Below, in pieces: positions 5,400 through 63,413 of a stretch of 64,000 nucleotides of DNA. How positions within the stretch are numbered: the stretch's first letter is position 1; every line of letters begins with the position of its first letter. The notes beneath the pieces are model-generated. The model was not told the DNA's origin, did not search any database, and worked only from the letters and a program-made list of their open reading frames with translations. Source of the stretch: an uncultured Actinomycetota bacterium (GTDB lineage: Bacteria; Actinomycetota; UBA4738; HRBIN12). Both the position numbers and the translations under genes were made by a program. The stretch lies in the NCBI GenBank assembly GCA_963839395.1, contig CAWIUW010000015.1:333104-397103 (forward strand). The letters run 5' to 3'.

Positions 5400-5449
5400 T
5401 TGACACCTGATTCGAGGCACGGTAGTTTACCGTCTAGTTATTTAACTAG
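5400..5449 (+). promoter_or_regulatory. putative sigma-70-type promoter (TTGACA-17-TAGTTT) followed by a 16-bp perfect palindrome CTAGTTATTTAACTAG, a likely ArsR-family operator
   Basis: AT-rich island in a GC-rich background, immediately upstream of the AGGAGG RBS of the ArsR gene. ArsR/SmtB repressors bind inverted repeats that overlap their own promoters. Confidence 0.45.
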
Positions 5450-5457
5450 GAGGTTGA

Positions 5458-5859
5458 GTGGTCACACAGTCGGATCGGCTCGATCGCACGTTCGCCGCAC
5501 TTTCGGATCCCACGCGGCGAGCGATCCTCGGCCGTCTCGCCACAGGTGAGGCCTCCGTCACCGAGCTGGCGGAGCCGTTCGACATGAGCATGCCGGCGGT
5601 CTCGAAGCACTTCAAGGTGCTCGAGCGGGCCGGGCTCATCGTGCGCGGGCGGCAGCGGCAGTGGCGGCCCGCCCGACTCGAAGCCGAGCCGCTCAAAGAG
5701 GTCGCCGACTGGACCGAGCGGTACCGGCGCTTCTGGGAGGAGCGCTACGACCGGTTGGACGACTACCTGGAAGAGCTCCAGGGACGAGGAAAGGGCCCAA
5801 CGGCCCAAGGAAAGGCCAAAGGAAAGGGAAAGGGGAAGAACGATGAGCGCAAGCGATAG
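5458..5859 (+). CDS. ArsR/SmtB-family transcriptional regulator
   Basis: Winged-helix motif LSDPTRRAILGRLATGEASVTELAEPFDMSMPAVSKHFKVLERAGLI. AGGAGG RBS. Confidence 0.85.
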   Translation: MVTQSDRLDRTFAALSDPTRRAILGRLATGEASVTELAEPFDMSMPAVSKHFKVLERAGLIVRGRQRQWRPARLEAEPLKEVADWTERYRRFWEERYDRLDDYLEELQGRGKGPTAQGKAKGKGKGKNDERKR

Positions 5860-6427: not shown

Positions 6428-9400
6428 ATGACGCGCTGCGCCGCCTGCGGGGCGGGCAACCCCGAGGGCGCGAGGTTCTGCAATGCCTGCGGAGAGCGCT
6501 TGGATGCGCCCCCCGCGTCCGGAACGCAGTCCGGCGAACGACGCGTGGTCACGATGCTCTTCTGCGACGTACGCGGATCGACCGCGATGGCTGAGGAGCT
6601 CGACCCCGAGGAGTGGACCGACGTCATGAACGAGGCGTTCGCCCACCTCATCGCGCCGGTCGTTCGACACGAGGGCACGGTGGCCCGTCTCATGGGCGAC
6701 GCGATCCTCGCCTTCTTCGGTGCGCCCACCGCCCACGAGGACGACCCGCAGCGCGCGGTGATGGCAGGGCTCGAGATCGTCGCCTCGATCGCCGCGCTCC
6801 GCGAGAAGGTCGCCCGGGAGCGAGGGCTCGACCTGAACGTCCGCGTCGGTATCAACACCGGCCCTGTCGTCGTGGGCGACGTGGGCTCGGAGCTGAAACA
6901 GGAGTACTCGGCGATGGGTGACGCCGTGAACGTCGCCGCCCGCATGGAGCAGACCGCGGAGCCCGGCTCCGTGCAGATCACGGAGGACACCTACCGGCTC
7001 ATCGCCGACCTCTTCGAGGTGGAGGCGCTGGGCGGCGTCGAGCTCAAGGGGAAACGCCGTCCCGTGGAGTCCTATCGGGTGCTCGGTCGCCTGGACGCTC
7101 CGTGGACCGTTCGCGCTGCTCGGCGCCTTGACGCGCCGCTCGTGGGACGTGAAGACGAGATGCGCGTGATCCGCGCCGCCCTCGAGGGCGCTCGCGAGGA
7201 TCGCGGACGCGTGCTGCTCCTGTGCGGCGACCCCGGTCTGGGCAAGAGCCGGTTGATCGAAGAGGCCAACGCGATCTGGTCGGAGCTGGAGCCCGGCGAC
7301 GATCGCCGCTGGGATTTCTGGCGGTGCGTCCCCTACGACTCGATGCAGCCGTACGCGCAATACCGCCGACTGATCAGCGAGCGCGCCGGCGTCAGGGAGA
7401 CGGACGCGGCCGAGACGGTGCGGATGAAGATCGCGGACCTGATGCGGGCGATCGCTCTCCCGGGTTGGGAAGAGACGAGCACACGGGTCGCGCGGGCGCT
7501 CCTCGGTGTGGAGCTGCCGGACGAGCCGCCGCTGGAAGGCGAGGAGTTCCAGCGAAAGGCCACGGAGCTCGTCGTCGGCTCGACGGTCGCCCAGGGGGGA
7601 CGACGCCTGATCGTCTTCGAGGACCTGCACTGGTGCGACCATGCCTCGCTCGACCTGGTCCGGGCGACGACCGAGCTGGTCGTGGACGCGCCGATCGTCG
7701 TCCTGATCTCGTTCCGTCCCGACCGCGAGGCCGTCTCGTGGGGGTTGCGCGAGTGGGTCGAAACCGATCTGGCGGAGCACGCGATCGTGCTCGACCTGGA
7801 GCCGCTCACGGCGGGGGAGAGCGACGAGCTCATCGGCGCCTTCCTCCCGGTCCCGGGGATGACCGAGGAAGACCGCCGCCGGATCCTCGGCAAGACGGAG
7901 GGCAACCCCCTTTTCCTCCAGGAGGTGGCGCGGGCGCTGATCGACGGCGGCCTCGTCGAGCGCGCGAACGGCGGGTGGCGGATGACCGGGGACGCGGCGG
8001 AGATCGCGATCCCCGACACGATCCAGAGCCTGATCACGGTCGGTCTGGACCGGCTGCCCGGGACGGCTCGCGGGACCGTGCAGACGGCCGCCGTGATCGG
8101 TCGGACCTTCGCCGAGGAGCTGCTGGTCGCCGTGGTCGGCCGGCCGGAGGTCCGCGAGGATCTGGACGAGCTGGTGCGCCGCGACCTGATCCGGGTGTCG
8201 GAGGACGGCGTGCAGGGCGAGTTCACGTTCCGGCACGCACTCACGCAGGAAGCCGCGTACGGCACGCTCCTGGCGAAGCATCGGAAGGCCACGCACCGCC
8301 GGGTCGCGGAGGTGCTCGAAGAGACCGCCCGAGAGCGCCTCGAGGAGGTCGCGCCGCTGCTCGTCCGGCACTTCTCCGAGGCCGGCGAGGACGAGCCGAC
8401 CCTCACCTACTCGGCGATGGCCGGAGACGCCGCGGCGCGCCTCCACGCGAACGCCGAAGCCGAGGCCCACTACCGAACGGGGATCGACGTGGCGCGCCGG
8501 ATCGAAGCGCCGCCGTCGCTCCTCCGGACGATGTACGAGCGGCGGGGCAGCGCGCTGGAGCTGCTCGGGCGCTACGACGACGCGATCGCGAACTACGAGG
8601 AGATGCAGGCCGAGGCCGTGACGCGAGGTGACGAGGCGATGGAGCTGGCCGCCAGCTCGATGATCGCGCTCCTGTACTCGACGGCGACGCCGAAGTTCGA
8701 TCCGCCGCTGGGACGTCGACTGTCGGAAGAGGCGGTCGTGATGGCGCGCCGGATCGGGGACCGTGCAGCCGAGGCGCGTGCCCTCTGGAACATCGTGGTG
8801 GCGAACGTCTACGGCGGAGGAGACGCTTCCCGAGCTGTGGAGGCGGGCGAGGCCTCCCTGGCGATCGCGCGCGAGCTGGGCGAGCGCGAACAGGTCGCGT
8901 TCACCCTGAACGATGTGACCCGTGCGTACATGTCGCGCGGCGACTTCACGACGGCTGCCGAACGCCTGGCCGAGGCACGTGAACTCTGGGAAGAGCTCGA
9001 TAACCGCCCGATGCTCGGCGAGAATCTCACGGTCGGCAGCGCGATGCACATGCTCCACGGCGACTTCGAGGCCGCGCTCGCCGACGCGGGACACGCCGCC
9101 GAGATCTCCGCCTCGATCGACAACGCGTGGGGTGAGTCGCACGCCCTGATCACGGTCTACCGCGTCGAGCTCGAGCTCGGGCGTCTCGGAGCGGCGATGG
9201 ACACGATCGAACGAAGCATGGAGCTCGGAGAGCGGGGTGGCTTCGCCTACGCGGGGATCGCCACGCGAGCCGATCTGGGGCGGCTGATCGCCTATCTCGG
9301 AGACGGTGAACGGGGCCTCGCCCTGGCCGACGAGTCGATCGAGGTCGCGCTCGAGCGCGTTCCTCCGGCTGCTTCCATCTCGCACGTTGCGCGCGCGAAC

Positions 9401-12542: not shown

Positions 12543-12576
12543 CCGAAGCCGGCCGACCGGAACGACGAGAACGTGA

Positions 12577-12613
12577 GAGGCGGCCGCGGCCCCGAAGGGG
12601 CCGCGGCCGCCTC
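12577..12613. terminator. perfect 17-bp GC-rich stem with GAA loop; candidate intrinsic terminator (possibly bidirectional)
   Basis: GAGGCGGCCGCGGCCCC-GAA-GGGGCCGCGGCCGCCTC, followed by GTCTCTC. Lies between the small ORF (+) and tRNA-His (-). Confidence 0.5.
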
Positions 12614-12622
12614 GTCTCTCAG

Positions 12623-12697
12623 GGTGACCGAGGGGACTTGAACCCCCAGCCTCCAGGACCACAACCTGGCGCTCTAACCAGTTGAGCTACGGCCACC
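12623..12697 (-). tRNA. tRNA-His (anticodon GUG) with extra 5' G(-1)
   Basis: GGTGGCCGTAGCTCAACTGGTTAGAGCGCCAGGTTGTGGTCCTGGAGGCTGGGGGTTCAAGTCCCCTCGGTCACC. Confidence 0.9.
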
Positions 12698-12763
12698 ACG
12701 TGCTGCACCAAGCGTACCGGATGCGACCCGGCGGGTTGCCTCGGAAAGCCTGGTCGGGCATCA

Positions 12764-12779
12764 TTGAACGGCCGTTCAA
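12764..12779. promoter_or_regulatory. 16-bp perfect palindrome TTGAACGGCCGTTCAA 20 bp upstream of the aminotransferase start; candidate operator shared with 62158-62173
   Basis: The identical 14-bp core TGAACGGCCGTTCA recurs upstream of the saccharopine dehydrogenase-like gene at 62158. Confidence 0.4.
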
Positions 12780-12799: not shown

Positions 12800-14185
12800 G
12801 TGGACGACCTGGCAACCAAGGAGACGATCGACTTCGACCTCGAGCTGGTCGACCGCTTGATCGCCGAGGAAGAAGCGTCGCTCGAGCCGAAGCACCGGGC
12901 CTCGATCGAGTACCGCGACGTGGCCGCGCGACATGTCGCCGGCGGGGTCGCGTCCTCGTGGCAGGCCTCGCCCCCACATGCGGTCTTCATCGACAGGGGA
13001 GCGGGCAGTCACATCTGGGACCTCGACGGGAACGAATACGTCGACTATCACCTCGGGTACGGCGCCATGATCGTCGGACACGCGCACCCCAAGGTCGTCG
13101 AGGCGATCGAGAAACGGGCCCGCCTCGGGACGCACTTCGCCCAGCCGACCGCTCAACTCCACGAGATCGGCGAGAACGTCGCGGAACGGTTCGGTCTGCC
13201 GCTCTGGCGGTTCTGCAACTCCGGCACGGAGGCGACACTCGAGGCGGTCCGGTTGATGCGGGCGAACACCGGCAGGGACATGATCGTGAAGATCGAAGGG
13301 ACCTACCACGGTCACCATGACTCGCTGATGTTCTCCGTCGCGCCGGACCCGGAGCTGATCGGCCCGCGCGAGCATCCCGTCACGGTGCCGCAGGCGATGG
13401 GGATCCCGCAGGCTTTCGCCGATCTGGTGCGTGTCGTGCCGTTCAACGACCTGGCCGAGGCCGAGCGGGCGTTCGCGGAGAACGACGGTCGTGTCGCCGG
13501 GATGATCGTGGAGCCGGCGATGATGAACTGCGGCGTCGTGCTGCCGCAGCCCGGCTACCTGGAGGGACTGCGCGAGCTCTGTCACCGACACGGGGCCTAC
13601 CTCGCCTTCGATGAGGTGAAGACCGGGGGGACGATCGCGTGGGGTGGCGCCGTGGAGGCGTTCGGCGTCCAGCCCGACATCGTCACGCTCGCGAAGGCGT
13701 TCGGCGGCGGTGTCCCGTGCGGGGCGATCGGCGCGACCGAGGAGCTCTTCGGGCCGGTCCTTCGAGGCGACCACGACATCGCCGGGACGTTCAACGGGAA
13801 CCCGCTCACGATGGCCGCGGCGAAGGCGACCTTGCTCGAGGTCCTCACACCCGATGCCTACGCGCGTCTGCACGAGGTCGACCGGGCGCTGAAGGACGGC
13901 CTCCGACCGATCATCGACCGGTATCGGCTCCCCGCGTACGTGACGGGGATCGGCGCGAAGGGCTCGGTCACGTACTCCCCGACGGAGGTCCGCGAATACC
14001 GGGACACGATCGGGATCGACGAGCGGATCAGCTACCTGGCGTGGCTGATCCAGCAGAACCGAGGCGTGTTCAAGGCGCCGTGGGCGAAGCAGGAGACCTG
14101 GACGCTCTCGGTCGCCCACTCCGACGACGATGCCCAGCGCTACGTCGACAACTTCGAGGAGTTCGCGGCCGCCGTCGCGAGCTGA
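12800..14185 (+). CDS. class III (PLP-dependent) aminotransferase, GSA-aminomutase/omega-aminotransferase-like, paralog 1
   Basis: HLGYGAMIVGHAHPKVVEAI, NSGTEATLEAVRLMR, DEVKTGG..(PLP lysine region), FNGNPLTMAAA. The start could be GTG 12800 or TTG 12764. Confidence 0.85.
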   Translation: MDDLATKETIDFDLELVDRLIAEEEASLEPKHRASIEYRDVAARHVAGGVASSWQASPPHAVFIDRGAGSHIWDLDGNEYVDYHLGYGAMIVGHAHPKVVEAIEKRARLGTHFAQPTAQLHEIGENVAERFGLPLWRFCNSGTEATLEAVRLMRANTGRDMIVKIEGTYHGHHDSLMFSVAPDPELIGPREHPVTVPQAMGIPQAFADLVRVVPFNDLAEAERAFAENDGRVAGMIVEPAMMNCGVVLPQPGYLEGLRELCHRHGAYLAFDEVKTGGTIAWGGAVEAFGVQPDIVTLAKAFGGGVPCGAIGATEELFGPVLRGDHDIAGTFNGNPLTMAAAKATLLEVLTPDAYARLHEVDRALKDGLRPIIDRYRLPAYVTGIGAKGSVTYSPTEVREYRDTIGIDERISYLAWLIQQNRGVFKAPWAKQETWTLSVAHSDDDAQRYVDNFEEFAAAVAS

Positions 14186-14198
14186 GAAGCTTCGCTCC

Positions 14199-15101
14199 GT
14201 GGGCGAGCGCTGGCTGCAGGTCGAACTGGAGGACGGCCGCTCGCTCGAGGCCGTGGTCCAGGGCGCCTCTGAGGGGACGCTCCTCATCTTCCATCACGGG
14301 AGTCCCGGCTCCGCTCAGCCGTTCGCTCCTTTCGACGAGGCGGCCGCCGAACGGGGTATCACGATCGCGTTCCCGTCTCGCGCCGGCTTCGGCGGATCGA
14401 GCAGGCAGGAGGGAAGGACGGTGGCGAGCGCGGCGGCGGACGCCGCCGCGCTCGCCGACCACCTCGGCCACGAGCGGTTCCTCACGGCCGGTTGGTCGGG
14501 CGGCGGCCCGCACGCTCTCGCTTGCGCGGCACTGCTCCCGGACCGCGTGCAGGCCGCCGCGACCATCGCCGGCGTCGCTCCGTACGACGCCGAGGGGCTG
14601 GACTGGACCGCCGGGATGGGCGAGGACAACCAGGTCGAGTACCCGACCGCGGCCCGTGACCCCGACGAGCTGCTCCGGTGGATGGAACCGCACGTAGAGG
14701 CGATGGCGACGATCGAGGCGGGGCAGATCGTCGCCGAGTGGCGGTCGCTGTTGTCGGGCGTCGATGTCGAACAGGTGACCGGCCAGTTCGGCGACAACTT
14801 CGCCGCCTCTTTGCGCTCGGCTTTCCGCAACGGGCCGTGGGGCTGGTACGACGACGACCTGGCATTCGTCCGCGATTGGGGCTTCGATGTGTCGAAGATC
14901 GGGATTCCCGTCTCGATCTGGCAGGGACGGCAGGACCTCATGGTGCCGATCACCCACGGCGAATGGCTGGCCGCGCATATCCCGGGTGCACGAGCCCACC
15001 TCCGTCCCGAGCACGGCCACCTGTCGCTCGGCATCGGCGCGTTCGGGGAGGTCCTCGACGAGCTCCTCCTCGCCGCAGGTCCGTCTACCATCGGGGCGTG
15101 A
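14199..15101 (+). CDS. alpha/beta-hydrolase fold protein
   Basis: GWSGGG nucleophile elbow. The GTG start at 14199 is preferred over the overlapping 14130. Confidence 0.7.
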   Translation: MGERWLQVELEDGRSLEAVVQGASEGTLLIFHHGSPGSAQPFAPFDEAAAERGITIAFPSRAGFGGSSRQEGRTVASAAADAAALADHLGHERFLTAGWSGGGPHALACAALLPDRVQAAATIAGVAPYDAEGLDWTAGMGEDNQVEYPTAARDPDELLRWMEPHVEAMATIEAGQIVAEWRSLLSGVDVEQVTGQFGDNFAASLRSAFRNGPWGWYDDDLAFVRDWGFDVSKIGIPVSIWQGRQDLMVPITHGEWLAAHIPGARAHLRPEHGHLSLGIGAFGEVLDELLLAAGPSTIGA

Positions 15102-15577
15102 GTCCGTCGCAGCCCGAGGTCCGCAAGAAGGCCGAGCACCTCGACGCACGGCTCCGGCCGTTCCTCTCCCGCATCGGCGTGCCGGCACTCAGGATCTCCA
15201 TCGGGATCGTGTTCCTCTGGTTCGGGCTCCTGAAGATCTTCGACGTCTCGCCCGTCTCGGAGCTCGTCGCGAAGACGATCTACTGGTTCGACCCGGACGT
15301 CGTCGTCCCGGCGCTAGGCGTGTTCGAGGTCTTCGTCGGCGTCTGCCTGATCGCGGGCCGGCTGATGCGGATCGTGCTGCCCCTCCTCGTCCTGCAGATG
15401 GCGGGCACGTTCCTCGTGCTGGTGATGCACCCGGACGTCGCGTTCCGCGACGGCAACCCGTTGCTGCTCACGGTCGAGGGCGAGTTCGTGATCAAGAACC
15501 TCGTGCTGCTCTCCGCCGCCCTCGTGATCGGCTCACGTCTCGCGCCGATCGGTGAGGGCGGCACGGGCAGCGCCTGA
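15098..15577 (+). CDS. DUF417 (YkgB/RclC-like) membrane protein
   Basis: ALRISIGIVFLWFGLLKIF..TVEGEFVIKNLVLLSAALVIG is typical of DUF417. The GTG overlaps the upstream stop (GTGA). Confidence 0.7.
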   Translation: MSPSQPEVRKKAEHLDARLRPFLSRIGVPALRISIGIVFLWFGLLKIFDVSPVSELVAKTIYWFDPDVVVPALGVFEVFVGVCLIAGRLMRIVLPLLVLQMAGTFLVLVMHPDVAFRDGNPLLLTVEGEFVIKNLVLLSAALVIGSRLAPIGEGGTGSA

Positions 15578-15605
15578 GTCGGCGGACGTCGTAGGCTCCA
15601 CATCC

Positions 15606-16988
15606 ATGGATACCGCCAGGACCGTCGACGTCGACCTCGACTGGGTCGAGGAGCTGACGAAGCGGGAGACCGAGGCGCTCGATCGCAAGCACGCCAGGTC
15701 GCTCTCGTACCGAGAGGAAGCGAAGCGGTTCCTTCCCGGCGGCGTGTCCTCCTCGTGGCAGTCGTGGCCGCCGCATCCGATCTACGTGCGGCGCGGTGAG
15801 GGTTCGCACGTGTGGGACATCGACGGCAACGAGTACGTCGACCTCCACAACGGCTACGGCGTGATGGTCATGGGGCACGCGCATCCCAAGGTGGTCGAGG
15901 CCGTCCAGCGGCGCGTCGCGGAAGGAACGCACTTCGCGCAGCCGACGGAGGAGGCGCTCCCGGTCGCGGAGAACCTCGCCGAGCGGTATCGCCTCCCGCA
16001 ATGGCGCTTCGGCAACTCCGGCACCGAGGCGACGCTCGATGCCTGCCGGATCTCCCGCGCGCTGACCGGTCGGTCGAGGATCCTGAAGATCGAGGGCACC
16101 TACCACGGTCATCACGACTCGCTGATGGTGAGCGTGTTCCCGTCGGAGGAGAAGGCCGGCCCGCGCGAGCACCCCGTCGCCGTTCCCCAGACGCTGGGCC
16201 TCCCGAAGGAGTTCGTCGATCTCGTGGTCAACGTGCCGTTCAACGATCTCGAGGCGGCGAAGGAGGCGTTCGCCGAGCACGCGGGGGAGTTCGCCTGCAT
16301 GATCGTGGAGCCCGCGATGACCAACTGCGGGCTGGTGCTACCGGATCCCGGCTACCTCGCCGGACTGAAGGACCTCTGTCGGACCGACGGGGCCCTGTTC
16401 GTGTTCGATGAGGTGAAGACGGGGTTCACGCTCGCGTGGGGCGGCGCCGTCGAGGCGTTCGGCGTCGTGCCAGACCTGATCTGCTTGGCGAAGGCGCTCG
16501 GGGCCGGTCTTCCCTGTGGGGCGATCGGTGGCACCGACGAGGCGATGGGCATGGTGATCAGCGGCGAGCTCGATCAGCAGGGAACGTTCAACGGCAACCC
16601 GCTCACGATGGCCGCCGCGAGGGCAAACCTTCTCGAGGTGCTCACGCCGGAGGCGTACGCGCGGTTCGACGAGCTGAACGCGATCCTCGCGCGCTCCGAG
16701 CAGGTCTGCCGTGACCAGGGACTCCCGGCGAACGCGAAGGTGCTCGGCGCGAAGGGCTCGGTCGAGTTCCGGCGCGAGCCGATCCACGAGTACCGGGACC
16801 TCTGGGACATCGACGACCGGGTGCCGCAGCTCGCGTGGCTCTGGCAGCTGAACCGTGGTGTGTTCAAGTCCCCCGGCTCGAAGTGGGAGAGCTGGACGAC
16901 GTCGATCGTCCATTCCGACGACGACGTGCAGCGCTACGTCGACAACCTCGAGGAGTTCGCCGCCACGGTCACCAACCCGGCTGCCTGA
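15606..16988 (+). CDS. class III aminotransferase, paralog 2 (about 65% identical to the 12800 gene by eye)
   Basis: The same motif set as paralog 1 (GHAHPKVVEAV, NSGTEATLDA, DEVKTGF, FNGNPLTMAAA). Confidence 0.85.
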   Translation: MDTARTVDVDLDWVEELTKRETEALDRKHARSLSYREEAKRFLPGGVSSSWQSWPPHPIYVRRGEGSHVWDIDGNEYVDLHNGYGVMVMGHAHPKVVEAVQRRVAEGTHFAQPTEEALPVAENLAERYRLPQWRFGNSGTEATLDACRISRALTGRSRILKIEGTYHGHHDSLMVSVFPSEEKAGPREHPVAVPQTLGLPKEFVDLVVNVPFNDLEAAKEAFAEHAGEFACMIVEPAMTNCGLVLPDPGYLAGLKDLCRTDGALFVFDEVKTGFTLAWGGAVEAFGVVPDLICLAKALGAGLPCGAIGGTDEAMGMVISGELDQQGTFNGNPLTMAAARANLLEVLTPEAYARFDELNAILARSEQVCRDQGLPANAKVLGAKGSVEFRREPIHEYRDLWDIDDRVPQLAWLWQLNRGVFKSPGSKWESWTTSIVHSDDDVQRYVDNLEEFAATVTNPAA

Positions 16989-60615: not shown

Positions 60616-60688
60616 GGGCCCATAGCTCAGCTGGTAGAGCGCTTGGCTGGCAGCCAAGAGGTCAGGGGTTCGAATCCCCTTGGGTCCA
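60616..60688 (+). tRNA. tRNA-Ala (anticodon GGC) with G3:U70
   Basis: GGGCCCATAGCTCAGCTGGTAGAGCGCTTGGCTGGCAGCCAAGAGGTCAGGGGTTCGAATCCCCTTGGGTCCA. Confidence 0.9.
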
Positions 60689-61239
60689 CATCCGCAGGTC
60701 AGGGGTGGTATCGGCATGCGCGGGGCGGGAAGCGAACTACATCGCGCATCGTCGCCGGCGGGCCGCGTGCCGTGGCGACAGTCGGGGCGATCCAACGGCT
60801 CGGCTACCGAGATGGGCGCTGCCTGCCCGCTCGAGAGTCGTCGTCAAGTTCTACTCGAGCGTGCCGCCCCTGTTCACGCGTCGGGCGAGATGGTTCATCG
60901 CCCGCTCGTCGCGGTCCCCGTCAGCCCAGAACAGCCAGCGTTGGCACCCATCCGTATAGTCCGGAAGCGCCCGGATCGCGAGAGCTGTGTTCGTTGGTAC
61001 TCCGTCGATCGATCGCGCGACGTACTCGGCGTTGCGCGCCACAACAGGACCGAGGAGGGCGCGTCGGACTGGTGCCTCGCAGCATGGGGCGTCCGGTTTG
61101 ACAGGCAAGACCTCGGGGGGCTAGCTTCGGCGATGAGAAGTCGCTGGGGCCTTCGGGTTCCGGCGGCTTCTCACTTTCTCCGGTCGCTTCGGCGGCGGTG
61201 CCTGGTTGCTCGACGGTTCACGTCTAGCGAGCCCCGCTC

Positions 61240-61824
61240 CTAACCGGCAGTGGACCGTTTCCAGTCCTGATACCCGATCCAGACGAAGAAGGGCAGCACG
61301 GAGATCAACATGACCACCAGGAGGCCTATGAACCCGCCTGGCTCGGGGGTCGGCTGGTATCGAACGGGACTTCTCATCACGGTGGTCGGAGCGGGCGCTA
61401 CCGAGGGCGTCACCGGATCGGATGACCCAGGGGATACTGTTGGCTGACCGGGGAGCTCCGCCGATGGTTGATGGTTCGTCGCAGATGCTCCCTCCTCGTT
61501 CTCCTCGATCAGCGAGAGCCGGCTCCGCACCGTCGCTCGATCCGACGTCCGCGGGTCCGACGCGGTCGATCCCGACCCGGACCCCGCAGCCGTGGCTGGT
61601 GTCGGCGAGGGCAGCGGCGTCACCGTTCGTACTGGGGATGGCGACGGCGTCCCCGAGGGGGATGGCTGCGGCGTCTCCGACGGACTGGGATCTGGACTCG
61701 GCGACGGCGTCTCCGATGGCGAGGGGGACGGCTTGGCGAGCTCGCTTCCGTCGGCGGCAAGAGCTGGAGCCGCTACCGCGAGCAGCAAAGACGCAACGGC
61801 CGTGATGAACTGCTTCTTCACCAA
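61240..61824 (-). CDS. secreted Pro/Ser-rich surface protein with signal peptide and C-terminal hydrophobic anchor
   Basis: MVKKQFITAVASLLLAVAAPALA signal. PSPSETPSPSPDPSPSETPQPSPSGTPSPSP repeats. C-terminal TPEPGGFIGLLVVMLISVLPFFVWIGYQDWKRS. Confidence 0.6.
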   Translation of the reverse strand: MVKKQFITAVASLLLAVAAPALAADGSELAKPSPSPSETPSPSPDPSPSETPQPSPSGTPSPSPVRTVTPLPSPTPATAAGSGSGSTASDPRTSDRATVRSRLSLIEENEEGASATNHQPSAELPGQPTVSPGSSDPVTPSVAPAPTTVMRSPVRYQPTPEPGGFIGLLVVMLISVLPFFVWIGYQDWKRSTAG

Positions 61825-62157
61825 ACCTCCAGACCGGCTGCCCGCGCCAGGACCACCCTACCCTCTTGTTTCCTGACCGCCCCCAACTGAAACGTGGCTC
61901 GCCACGAAGGCTCGGGAGGGACAGGCGCTCGCATCCGGCGGAGTCGTCTACCACGCACTGAATCCTGATCCTTGATGGCCGGGATGATGAGGGTGGGATC
62001 GGCGCAGATGACAGCGGATCGCTGCGCAGCGGTCCTCGTCACGTCGACGCGCGGCGGCCGGAAGTGAGGCGCAGGCGACACGATCGTCTTCGTCCTGGAT
62101 GAGGAACGAGACCCGGACGCGATCGCTCGCCTCGCCGATGCCGTGAGCTGAACGCCT

Positions 62158-62173
62158 CCTGAACGGCCGTTCA
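62158..62173. promoter_or_regulatory. 16-bp perfect palindrome CTGAACGGCCGTTCAG 22 bp upstream of the start codon; second copy of the 12764 motif
   Basis: Identical 14-bp core TGAACGGCCGTTCA. An extra half-site CTGAACG lies 10 bp upstream. Confidence 0.4.
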
Positions 62174-62195
62174 GGGCGTCGGTACACTCGGCGAC

Positions 62196-63413
62196 ATGAG
62201 GATCCTGGTCGTGGGCTCGGGTGGGGTGGGATCGGCGTTCGCGCCGATCGCGGCTCGACGTGAGTTCTACGAGCACATCGTCTTCGCCGACTACGACGAA
62301 GGCCGTGCCCATCGCGTCGTCGACCGCTACGGCGACGGCCGCTTCTCGGCCGCGCGCGTGGACGCGAGCGATGCCGCCGCCGTCGCCGAGCTGGCTCGCT
62401 CCACCGGGTCCGACACGATCGTGAACGCCGTCGACCCGCGTTTCGTGATGCCGATCTTCGAGGGAGCGTTCGATGCCGGCGCCACCTATCTCGACATGGC
62501 GATGTCGCTCTCGAAGCCGCATCCCGAGAAGCCGGAAGAACTGCCCGGGGTCAAGCTGGGTGACGAGCAGTTCGCCGCGGCCGGTCGATGGGAGGAGCGG
62601 GGTCTCCTTGCCCTGGTCGGTGTCGGGGTCGAGCCAGGCATGTCGGACGTGTTCGCGCGATACGCCGCCGACGAGCTGTTCGACACGATCGACGAGATCG
62701 GTGTCCGAGACGGAGCGAACCTCGAGGTGGAGGGGTACGAGTTCGCGCCGAGCTTCTCGATCTGGACCACGATCGAGGAGTGCCTGAACCCCCCGGTGAT
62801 CTGGGAGAAGGACCGGGGCTGGTTCACGACCCCGTCCTTCAGCGAGCCCGAGGTCTTCACGTTCCCCGAGGGGATCGGTCCGATCGAATGCGTGAACGTC
62901 GAGCACGAGGAGGTGTTGCTCGTCCCTCGCTGGATCGATTGTCGTCGCGTGACCTTCAAGTACGGGCTGGGCGACGAGTTCATCGACGTGCTGAAGACCC
63001 TCCGCAAGCTCGGGCTGGACCGCACCGAGAGGCTGCGCGTGGACGGGGTGGAAGTGTCGCCCCGGGACGTCGTCGCAGCCGCTCTGCCCGACCCGATGAC
63101 CCTGGGGGACAAGATGACCGGCAGGACCTGCGCGGGGACGTGGGTGACCGGGACGGGCGCGGACGGCGGGCAGCGGGAGGTCTACCTCTACCACGTGGTC
63201 GACAACGAAGAGACCTGGTCGCGGGACGGCGCGCAGGCGGTGGTCTGGCAGACCGCCCTCAACCCGCTGATCGCGCTGGAGCTGCTCGCGACCGGCGTCT
63301 GGTCGGGCGCGGGCGTCCTGGGCCCGGAGGCCTTCGAGGCTCGCCCCTTCCTGGACCTGCTCGGTGACTACGGGTCACCCTGGGGCATCGAGGAGCGTTC
63401 GGTGAGCCGATAG
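62196..63413 (+). CDS. saccharopine dehydrogenase-like NAD(P)-binding oxidoreductase
   Basis: MRILVVGSGGVGSAF Rossmann motif. 405 aa. Confidence 0.8.
   Translation: MRILVVGSGGVGSAFAPIAARREFYEHIVFADYDEGRAHRVVDRYGDGRFSAARVDASDAAAVAELARSTGSDTIVNAVDPRFVMPIFEGAFDAGATYLDMAMSLSKPHPEKPEELPGVKLGDEQFAAAGRWEERGLLALVGVGVEPGMSDVFARYAADELFDTIDEIGVRDGANLEVEGYEFAPSFSIWTTIEECLNPPVIWEKDRGWFTTPSFSEPEVFTFPEGIGPIECVNVEHEEVLLVPRWIDCRRVTFKYGLGDEFIDVLKTLRKLGLDRTERLRVDGVEVSPRDVVAAALPDPMTLGDKMTGRTCAGTWVTGTGADGGQREVYLYHVVDNEETWSRDGAQAVVWQTALNPLIALELLATGVWSGAGVLGPEAFEARPFLDLLGDYGSPWGIEERSVSR

Follow-up and report, generated by a model that had tools for sequence, protein, structure and literature searches.

Two described regulatory systems are close to the element considered here, a palindrome whose identical 14-base-pair (bp) core lies upstream of two metabolic genes in DNA from an uncultured Actinomycetota bacterium (contig CAWIUW010000015.1; the whole stretch of 64,000 nucleotides that was analysed, with a G+C content of 68%, is called the window below). 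The first is BetI of Escherichia coli K-12. The intergenic region between betI and betT contains TTGATTGGACGTTCAA (locus L223, 783-798), which agrees with the window palindrome TTGAACGGCCGTTCAA in 13 of 16 bases and has the same length and the same axis, so that the window site conforms to the BetI operator type TTGAxxGxxCGTTCAA. The same E. coli sequence has been used in a BetI-repressed synthetic promoter (PMC7058928). The second is RolR of Corynebacterium glutamicum, a TetR regulator of resorcinol catabolism whose operator rolO is reported to contain TGAAC-N4-GTTCA (PMC9210681); this was the only mention of the motif found in a literature search.

The window sites share features with both systems and differ from both. 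RolR is, like the regulator we will propose, an actinobacterial TetR protein that goes with TGAAC-N4-GTTCA. Its operator, however, is 29 bp long with two different palindromes for a pair of dimers, whereas the window sites have no second palindrome; moreover, RolR controls adjacent aromatic-catabolism genes, while no regulator gene adjoins the window sites. In comparison with BetI, the palindrome in the window is perfect and the E. coli site is imperfect, and TTGAACGGCCGTTCAA reads as the perfect-palindrome form of the latter. The window targets, aminotransferases and a saccharopine-dehydrogenase-like enzyme, also lie far from any regulator. An earlier note on this DNA had described the regulon as undescribed. 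That description holds only in part: the literature search found no paper on the regulon, but the motif is close to a perfect form of the E. coli BetI site. The palindrome is a real, strongly conserved cis-regulatory element that defines a small putative regulon in uncultured Actinomycetota, and it is of a familiar kind, the TetR/BetI type. The two sites and the genes behind them are as follows.

12764..12779, no strand: putative operator 1, the perfect 16-bp palindrome TTGAACGGCCGTTCAA, with its 14-bp core at 12765-12778
12800..14185, + strand: AT1, class-III aminotransferase, first gene of its operon (Pfam PF00202)
62159..62174, no strand: putative operator 2, the perfect 16-bp palindrome CTGAACGGCCGTTCAG, with its core at 62160-62173
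62196..63413, + strand: saccharopine-dehydrogenase-like NAD(P) oxidoreductase with Sacchrp_dh_NADP and Sacchrp_dh_C domains (Pfam PF03435 and PF16653), called the dehydrogenase gene below

The palindrome and its conservation

The core TGAACGGCCGTTCA has exactly two exact copies in the window, one at each locus as the earlier note had reported, and the matches with three mismatches are as many as chance would give. A gap of 20 nucleotides (nt) separates operator 1 from the GTG at 12800, and one of 21 nt separates operator 2 from the ATG at 62196. The two sites are thus alike in their distance to the start codon, as had been claimed, but not in their placement within the predicted promoter, which is at the -10 element and start site in one case and at the -35 region in the other. 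The window contains 13 perfect 14-bp palindromes, and TGAACGGCCGTTCA is the sole repeated one. This repeat had been called far beyond chance, which for the bare repeat is an overstatement: a repeated palindromic 14-mer of any sequence appeared in 15 of 300 Markov-simulated windows, so that the observation is only moderately improbable (p about 0.05 or less). For this reason the case was built on comparative evidence, and it is the weight matrix and the orthologs that exclude chance. With a weight matrix derived from the orthologous AT1 sites, operator 1 scores 32.0 bits and operator 2 scores 20.9 bits, while the rest of the window stays below 5 bits; the maximum per simulated 64-kb sequence (n = 40) had a mean of 3.9 bits and never exceeded 19.0.

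The AT1 relatives comprise 80 loci from a scan of species-representative genomes, all of them metagenome-assembled genomes (MAGs) of uncultured Actinomycetota, with AT1 orthologs that are 72-93% identical to the one in the window. Every locus that has upstream DNA (79 of 79) carries the palindrome, in the form T-TGAAY-N4-RTTCA-A, 11-82 nt ahead of the start of the protein match. In the 75 distinct sites TGAA and TTCA are invariant and the flanking T and A nearly so; position 5 is either C or T and position 10 either G or A, and the variants TGAAT and ATTCA occur in about 15% of the sites. The centre is mostly GGCC, with CGCC, GACC, CACC and others also seen. In other words, the half-sites are fixed, and drift is seen in the flanks and in much of the centre. 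Nine loci have an extra copy of the palindrome before paralogous aminotransferase genes, and paralogs in other genomes of the type of the second aminotransferase of the window, AT2, carry a palindrome of their own that overlaps a TAGACT -10 element. For the dehydrogenase gene, whose protein has homologs that are 79-93% identical, seven related loci were fetched (L081, L082 and L084-L088), and four of them (L084, L085, L087 and L088) have the palindrome at the same place.

The earlier note had named two observations that would speak against an operator, namely absence from orthologous promoters and a comparable frequency in coding DNA. Neither was made. The site is kept at all of the AT1 loci just described and at four of the seven dehydrogenase loci, with a degenerate copy at one more. 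Every match of at least 14 bits in about 1 Mb of related loci precedes these same genes, and that sequence holds no coding or unrelated intergenic copies. The proposal of an operator that serves a small regulon for a dimeric helix-turn-helix regulator has therefore come through both comparisons. We consider it very probable that the palindrome is a conserved operator of a dimeric repressor.

A side observation concerns the start of the AT1 gene itself. Its first codons read ATG GCG GTT CG in nine relatives (L021, L026, L028, L041, L047, L048, L062, L065 and L078) and resemble the right half of the operator (GGCCGTTCA). The likeness may be a coincidence, or it may be a weak extra half-site about 20-35 nt downstream.

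Promoter placement and a candidate repressor

When the upstream regions are aligned, conserved elements of the sigma-A type stand out. Three putative promoter elements can be read from the window.

12736..12741, + strand: putative -35 element TTGCCT of the AT1 promoter, read from the sequence, with a 17-nt spacer to the -10 element
12759..12764, + strand: putative -10 element CATCAT of the AT1 promoter, the final T of which is the first base of the palindrome
62183..62188, + strand: putative -10 element TACACT of the dehydrogenase promoter, 9 nt past the palindrome core and 7 nt before the ATG

The AT1 arrangement is that of the majority class, in which a hexamer of the form xAxxxT ends at the first T of the palindrome (57 of 79 distinct upstream regions). 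In 41 of those 57 regions a TTG is found 16-19 nt further upstream, and a G is conserved at -7. Transcription of AT1 would start at about 12770-12772, within operator 1. At the paralog sites the TAGACT element overlaps the palindrome by one base more than at AT1. In two lineages with a long leader the -10 element, TATCAT or CACCAT, lies 12-13 nt upstream, and the palindrome would occupy about +7 to +22. At the dehydrogenase gene, TACACT is kept in the window and in all seven related loci, 8-9 nt after the palindrome and also where the palindrome is missing; operator 2 would cover the -35 region of a promoter that probably gives a leaderless mRNA. In most of the fetched relatives a luciferase-like oxidoreductase gene precedes the dehydrogenase gene. 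The window keeps only its last 24 codons (62077-62148), and therefore the dehydrogenase gene needs a promoter of its own. These hexamers are proposed as promoters from their conservation across genomes. All three operator placements would be typical of repression by occlusion, and we propose repression rather than activation.

It should be added that the extra half-site that the earlier note had seen beside operator 2 is present but is not conserved.

62148..62154, + strand: half-site CTGAACG, overlapping the TGA stop codon of the 24-codon luciferase-like remnant (62077-62148)

Since it overlaps this stop codon and has no counterpart in the relatives, it is probably incidental. No clear coding signal was seen between the tRNA-Ala gene (60616-60689) and the dehydrogenase promoter (60690-62148), which, with only the luciferase-like remnant left, suggests a deletion or rearrangement beside tRNA-Ala.

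A regulator was sought in the window by Pfam scans of about 45 open reading frames (ORFs), and in metagenomes by a scan for the exact 14-mer VTGAACGGCCGTTCA that excluded the T...A flanks typical of AT1. The metagenome scan returned 120 loci, which come mostly from unrelated organisms, as roughly estimated for chance matches of a 14-mer; a handful were informative. The most useful of them is L138. Here a TetR gene begins 15 nt after the exact 14-mer, and a TAACCT -10 element overlaps the 14-mer in the same way as at the paralog sites. Orthologs of this TetR protein are 64-97% identical, and every one that was fetched has a site of the type TGAAC-N4-GTTCA at the same place before the gene, which gives seven distinct orthologous promoters with the operator directly upstream. 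A TetR, GntR or IclR gene with the same site in its own promoter was what the earlier note had proposed to look for. The sites are listed here by their centres.

L138: TetR-promoter site with centre GGCC
L209: TetR-promoter site with centre GAAG
L210: TetR-promoter site with centre CGCG
L211: TetR-promoter site with centre GGTT
L212: TetR-promoter site with centre GACT
L213: TetR-promoter site variant TGAAT-CTCC
L214-L221: TetR-promoter site with centre CTCC

The candidate combines PF00440 with the BetI-type C-terminal domain PF13977, and its homologs are found in Solirubrobacterales and Actinomycetota MAGs. Its best NCBIfam match is to BetI (TIGR03384), over the full length, with 77-82 bits against a cutoff of 201.3, and it is 24% identical to E. 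coli BetI. The likeness to BetI thus extends from the C-terminal domain to a site in the regulator's own promoter region and to a link with genes of methylated-amine metabolism. The candidate is not, however, a BetI equivalog, being far under the TIGR03384 cutoff, and instead of betA, betB and betT it has a PotD-like transporter, a second TetR gene, a Rieske oxygenase and an FAD oxidoreductase as its neighbours. The PotD-like ABC transporter always follows the TetR gene, and the usual cluster includes the second TetR gene, a GbcA-like Rieske oxygenase, a CrtI-/amine-oxidase-type FAD enzyme and an acyl-CoA dehydrogenase. Elsewhere the exact 14-mer stands in front of homologs of two of these cluster genes, in a Rieske-GcvT-MTHFR operon (L154) and in an FAD-oxidoreductase-GcvT operon (L115). 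A dyad of 14-16 bp with two half-sites of 5-6 bp, a site in the regulator's own promoter and a polymerase-blocking placement at the putative promoters are among the features of a TetR operator pair, and these three are found here.

Several observations weigh against this assignment and should be taken together. No regulator gene was found next to the two window sites, in agreement with the earlier note, nor next to the sites of 88 related loci; TetR regulators are usually encoded locally, so the absence of such a neighbour is unusual. No contig was found that is shared by the TetR sites and the aminotransferase or dehydrogenase sites. The TetR gene came from an exact 14-mer search of a very large collection of metagenomes, for which the estimated chance matches run to thousands, and TetR operators of such a shape are common, so that a coincidental match to an unrelated TetR protein is possible. 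The aminotransferase sites strongly conserve the centre GGCC, but at the sites of the TetR gene itself the centre is free to vary. Of the seven dehydrogenase loci, two (L081 and L086) no longer have the palindrome, and a third (L082) has a degenerate copy. Finally, a consensus promoter scanner with a threshold of 9 of 12 positions called no promoter at either site, the AT1 -35 and -10 elements matching at 8 of 12. The lineage labels of the TetR and target loci overlap (Solirubrobacterales and Actinomycetota MAGs). Three points make coincidence less likely: the promoters are arranged identically, the operator is of the BetI type and the genes are functionally coherent. Overall, it seems likely to us that the palindrome serves at both promoters as the operator of a homodimeric helix-turn-helix repressor, for which a BetI-like TetR protein is the best candidate. 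That this particular BetI-like TetR protein is the repressor of the two sites in the window is a proposal towards which we lean with some caution.

Other regulator genes were considered and rejected. The only transcription factor gene found in the window, of the ArsR family (5458-5859), has a different, A+T-rich palindrome in its promoter. This palindrome, CTAGTTATTTAACTAG, is located at 5434-5449 between a TTGACA-like -35 element and the start codon, and an AHSA1/SRPBCC gene follows the ArsR-family gene; it is probably an autoregulatory operator of that gene, unrelated to the 14-mer. The genes between or beside the aminotransferase genes of relatives encode a DJ-1-like protein and a membrane protein or are spurious ORFs. 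PadR-like and YcaQ-like winged-helix genes, as read from sequence, are frequent neighbours of the aminotransferase genes, and no site stands upstream of either. A TetR paralog in L051, 43% identical to the TetR protein of L138, was set aside because its promoter palindrome differs (TCTAGAATGGCGTTCTAGA, 6860-6880). It lies 5 kb from the aminotransferase genes, and the changes in its half-sites track the divergence of the paralogs.

The metagenome scan gave two other groups of loci. In high-G+C metagenomic contigs a TTGAC -35 and a CAYTAT -10 element flank the exact 14-mer ahead of a gene of about 100 amino acids that is WhiB-like by its sequence features (L116:502, L136:4639 and L202:1707). This gene may be a further member of the regulon, or a target of a similar regulator. 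In contigs of 63-66% G+C (L098:2044, L100:4430 and L111:659) the 14-mer lies between divergent genes for a short-chain dehydrogenase and for a 98-amino-acid protein, taken by reading as SCP2-like, and it is adjoined by a second palindrome, ACGTTTACGTAAACGT; these loci look like a different regulon that shares the same core.

Alternative readings of the palindrome

The alternative that survives best, although we regard it as rather unlikely, is that the operator belongs to a dimeric or hexameric regulator from some other family, such as an arginine repressor of the ArgR type. The classic ARG box of ArgR/AhrC, TGAAT-W4-ATTCA, has the same half-site and spacing, and ArgR regulates genes of the aminotransferase type elsewhere. 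The TGAAT and ATTCA variants noted above are the half-sites of the ARG box, the target genes, for aminotransferases and a dehydrogenase, belong to amino-compound metabolism, and a global regulator would explain why no regulator gene adjoins the sites in the 88 loci. Against this, the centre is G+C-rich (GGCC, CGCC, GACC) rather than A+T-rich, the boxes are single with no tandem arrangement, and actinobacterial ARG boxes use TGCAT half-sites. A search for the ArgR signature motif in the collected loci found none, nor is there an argR gene or an arg operon among them, and a TetR gene with the motif in its own promoter is the more direct lead.

A second alternative takes the palindrome to work as RNA. 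It would form a hairpin at the 5' terminus of the mRNA or belong to a structured leader or a riboswitch, and would toggle between a local hairpin and a long-range helix beside the ribosome-binding site. The long-leader lineages speak for this possibility, since there the -10 element lies far enough upstream for the palindrome to be transcribed. Moreover, a distal GGCGGTTC or GGCCGTTC, which immediately precedes the Shine-Dalgarno sequence, is complementary in these lineages to the left half and centre of the palindrome. The helix of TGAACCGCC with GGCGGTTC is predicted by RNAalifold; it has several G-U pairs and a single compensatory column, which is CG in 9 sequences and GC in 6. This long-range helix is, however, limited to a minority of lineages. 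At most loci, the window included, the -10 element abuts the palindrome, so that transcription would start inside it and leave the left arm outside the RNA; at the dehydrogenase gene the whole palindrome is upstream of the -10 element. The local stem has no covariation either. Positions 5 and 10 are combined as C/A, a mismatch, at 9 loci, as T/G (U/G in RNA) at 10 and as T/A (U/A) at 2, with the remaining stem invariant, which makes mismatches as common as U-G pairs. Judged from these sequences, such independent variation of the half-sites is the mark of sequence-specific protein contact and not of a structural RNA. An Rfam scan of the window site and 15 related loci found only tRNAs and no cis-regulatory RNA family. 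With no Rfam family, no covariation in the local stem and most sites predicted to be half transcribed, the marks of a cis-regulatory RNA are missing, and we consider an RNA element improbable as an account of the palindrome.

The helix of the long-leader lineages may nevertheless be a real leader structure. It would then be a lineage-specific secondary feature, which cannot account for the universal conservation of the palindrome. It was seen in two sets of loci (L039, L055, L056, L070, L072, L073, L076, L079 and L080; and L018, L031, L032, L038, L050 and L058). The helix encloses a variable hairpin, and the Shine-Dalgarno sequence lies in the loop of another small hairpin.

Still less probable, to the point that we give it very little weight, is a variant of the LexA SOS box. 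The Gram-positive and actinobacterial consensus of this box (the Cheo box) is CGAAC-N4-GTTCG; it shares the GAAC-N4-GTTC core and its spacing with the palindrome, and one paralog site, in L051, has a TCGAAC half. But GAAC is preceded by T in 75 of 75 distinct AT1 sites where LexA boxes have C, the targets are metabolic rather than repair genes, and it is a TetR gene that carries the motif. The Rex operator, TGTGAA-N4-TTCACA, was rejected on spacing, which is GAA-N4-TTC there and GAA-N6-TTC in the window. Hardly any room is left for a chance repeat or a dispersed repetitive element without regulatory role: the repeated 14-mers of the simulated windows, in about 5% of them, were mostly simple sequence, whereas the position of this palindrome is conserved at all 79 orthologous promoters of a gene whose protein is only 72-93% identical, and a REP- or MITE-like repeat is at odds with two copies in 64 kb and with copies in about 1 Mb that all stand before the same gene families.

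The proposed regulon and its genes

If a BetI-like TetR repressor does use the palindrome as its operator, a simple model can be put forward. A repressor homodimer would bind T-TGAAC-N4-GTTCA-A with one half-site per subunit and would block RNA polymerase, at the -10 element and start site of AT1 and at the -35 region of the dehydrogenase gene. The repressor would leave the DNA in response to a small-molecule inducer, probably an amine that enters through the PotD-like ABC transporter, and the genes for uptake and for catabolism would then be switched on at the same time. Formation or cleavage of a secondary amine could be the task of the saccharopine-dehydrogenase-like enzyme, and the amino-aldehydes or diamines that result could be substrates of the aminotransferases. 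At many aminotransferase loci the neighbours, as read from representative sequences, include homocysteine S-methyltransferase-like (BHMT-type) and sarcosine-oxidase-like genes. Because of these neighbours, the PotD-like transporter and the enzymes of demethylation and amine-oxidation type, the regulon would appear to serve the uptake and catabolism of an amine, a polyamine or a methylated amine.

Two further ideas go beyond this model, and we put them forward as a speculation that is unlikely to be true. One is that in the long-leader lineages the same 16 bases are the operator of the repressor in DNA and the 5' strand of the long-range helix in RNA, which would couple transcription with translation or mRNA stability. 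The other, separate from it, is that the regulon is an uncharacterised catabolic route for amines or polyamines in abundant uncultured soil Actinomycetota, with uptake of the PotD-like type, a cleavage step by the saccharopine-dehydrogenase-like enzyme and a transamination step by the aminotransferases.

The proposed regulon reveals no new principle of regulation. What it provides is a testable regulon for widespread uncultured soil Actinomycetota, with a 16-bp operator, a candidate BetI-like TetR repressor and at least three target classes, namely the aminotransferase-hydrolase operon, the dehydrogenase-like gene and the PotD-like transporter. Co-regulation would join genes that are annotated by family name only into one probable amine-catabolic pathway. 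Such a regulon could guide enzyme assays and the discovery of the inducer, and the operator and repressor pair could become a part for biosensors.

The remaining genes at the AT1 locus are the following.

14130..15101, + strand: alpha/beta hydrolase, start codon uncertain (Pfam Abhydrolase_1)
15552..16988, + strand: AT2, second class-III aminotransferase, of the same family as AT1 (Pfam/NCBIfam scan)
12622..12696, - strand: tRNA-His, divergent neighbour of the AT1 promoter

AT1 matches NCBIfam models of the HemL type with 325-343 bits. Both AT1 and AT2 score under the cutoffs of these models, and by sequence they are paralogs of glutamate-1-semialdehyde aminomutase. The sole NCBIfam match of the saccharopine-dehydrogenase-like protein is to carboxynorspermidine synthase, with 175 bits against a cutoff of 800. 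The link to lysine metabolism that had been suggested for both loci has no specific support in these assignments, the aminotransferases being aminomutase paralogs and the dehydrogenase matching only carboxynorspermidine synthase, far below the cutoff. The hydrolase gene is probably co-transcribed with AT1. In some relatives AT1 and the hydrolase form a single ORF of 726-761 amino acids (P0002, with PF00202 and PF00561, and L017, L065 and L076). This fusion supports a functional link of the hydrolase with AT1; the single ORF may also result from a frameshift or from an error in gene calling.

The side of the AT1 promoter that faces away from the operon is occupied by tRNA genes. At all 12 of the small loci with an Rfam tRNA, the region upstream of the aminotransferase gene has one tRNA gene or two, encoded on the opposite strand, and the divergent arrangement of tRNA and aminotransferase genes, seen in many distant relatives, is unusually stable (the window, L012, L020, L021, L023, L030, L032, L041, L045, L047, L050, L053 and L077). 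Just downstream of tRNA-His, at 12570-12618, the window has a long, G+C-rich and perfect hairpin (GAGAGGCGGCCGCGGCCCC GAAG GGGGCCGCGGCCGCCTC), which has weak, sub-threshold Rfam matches and is probably a bidirectional terminator.

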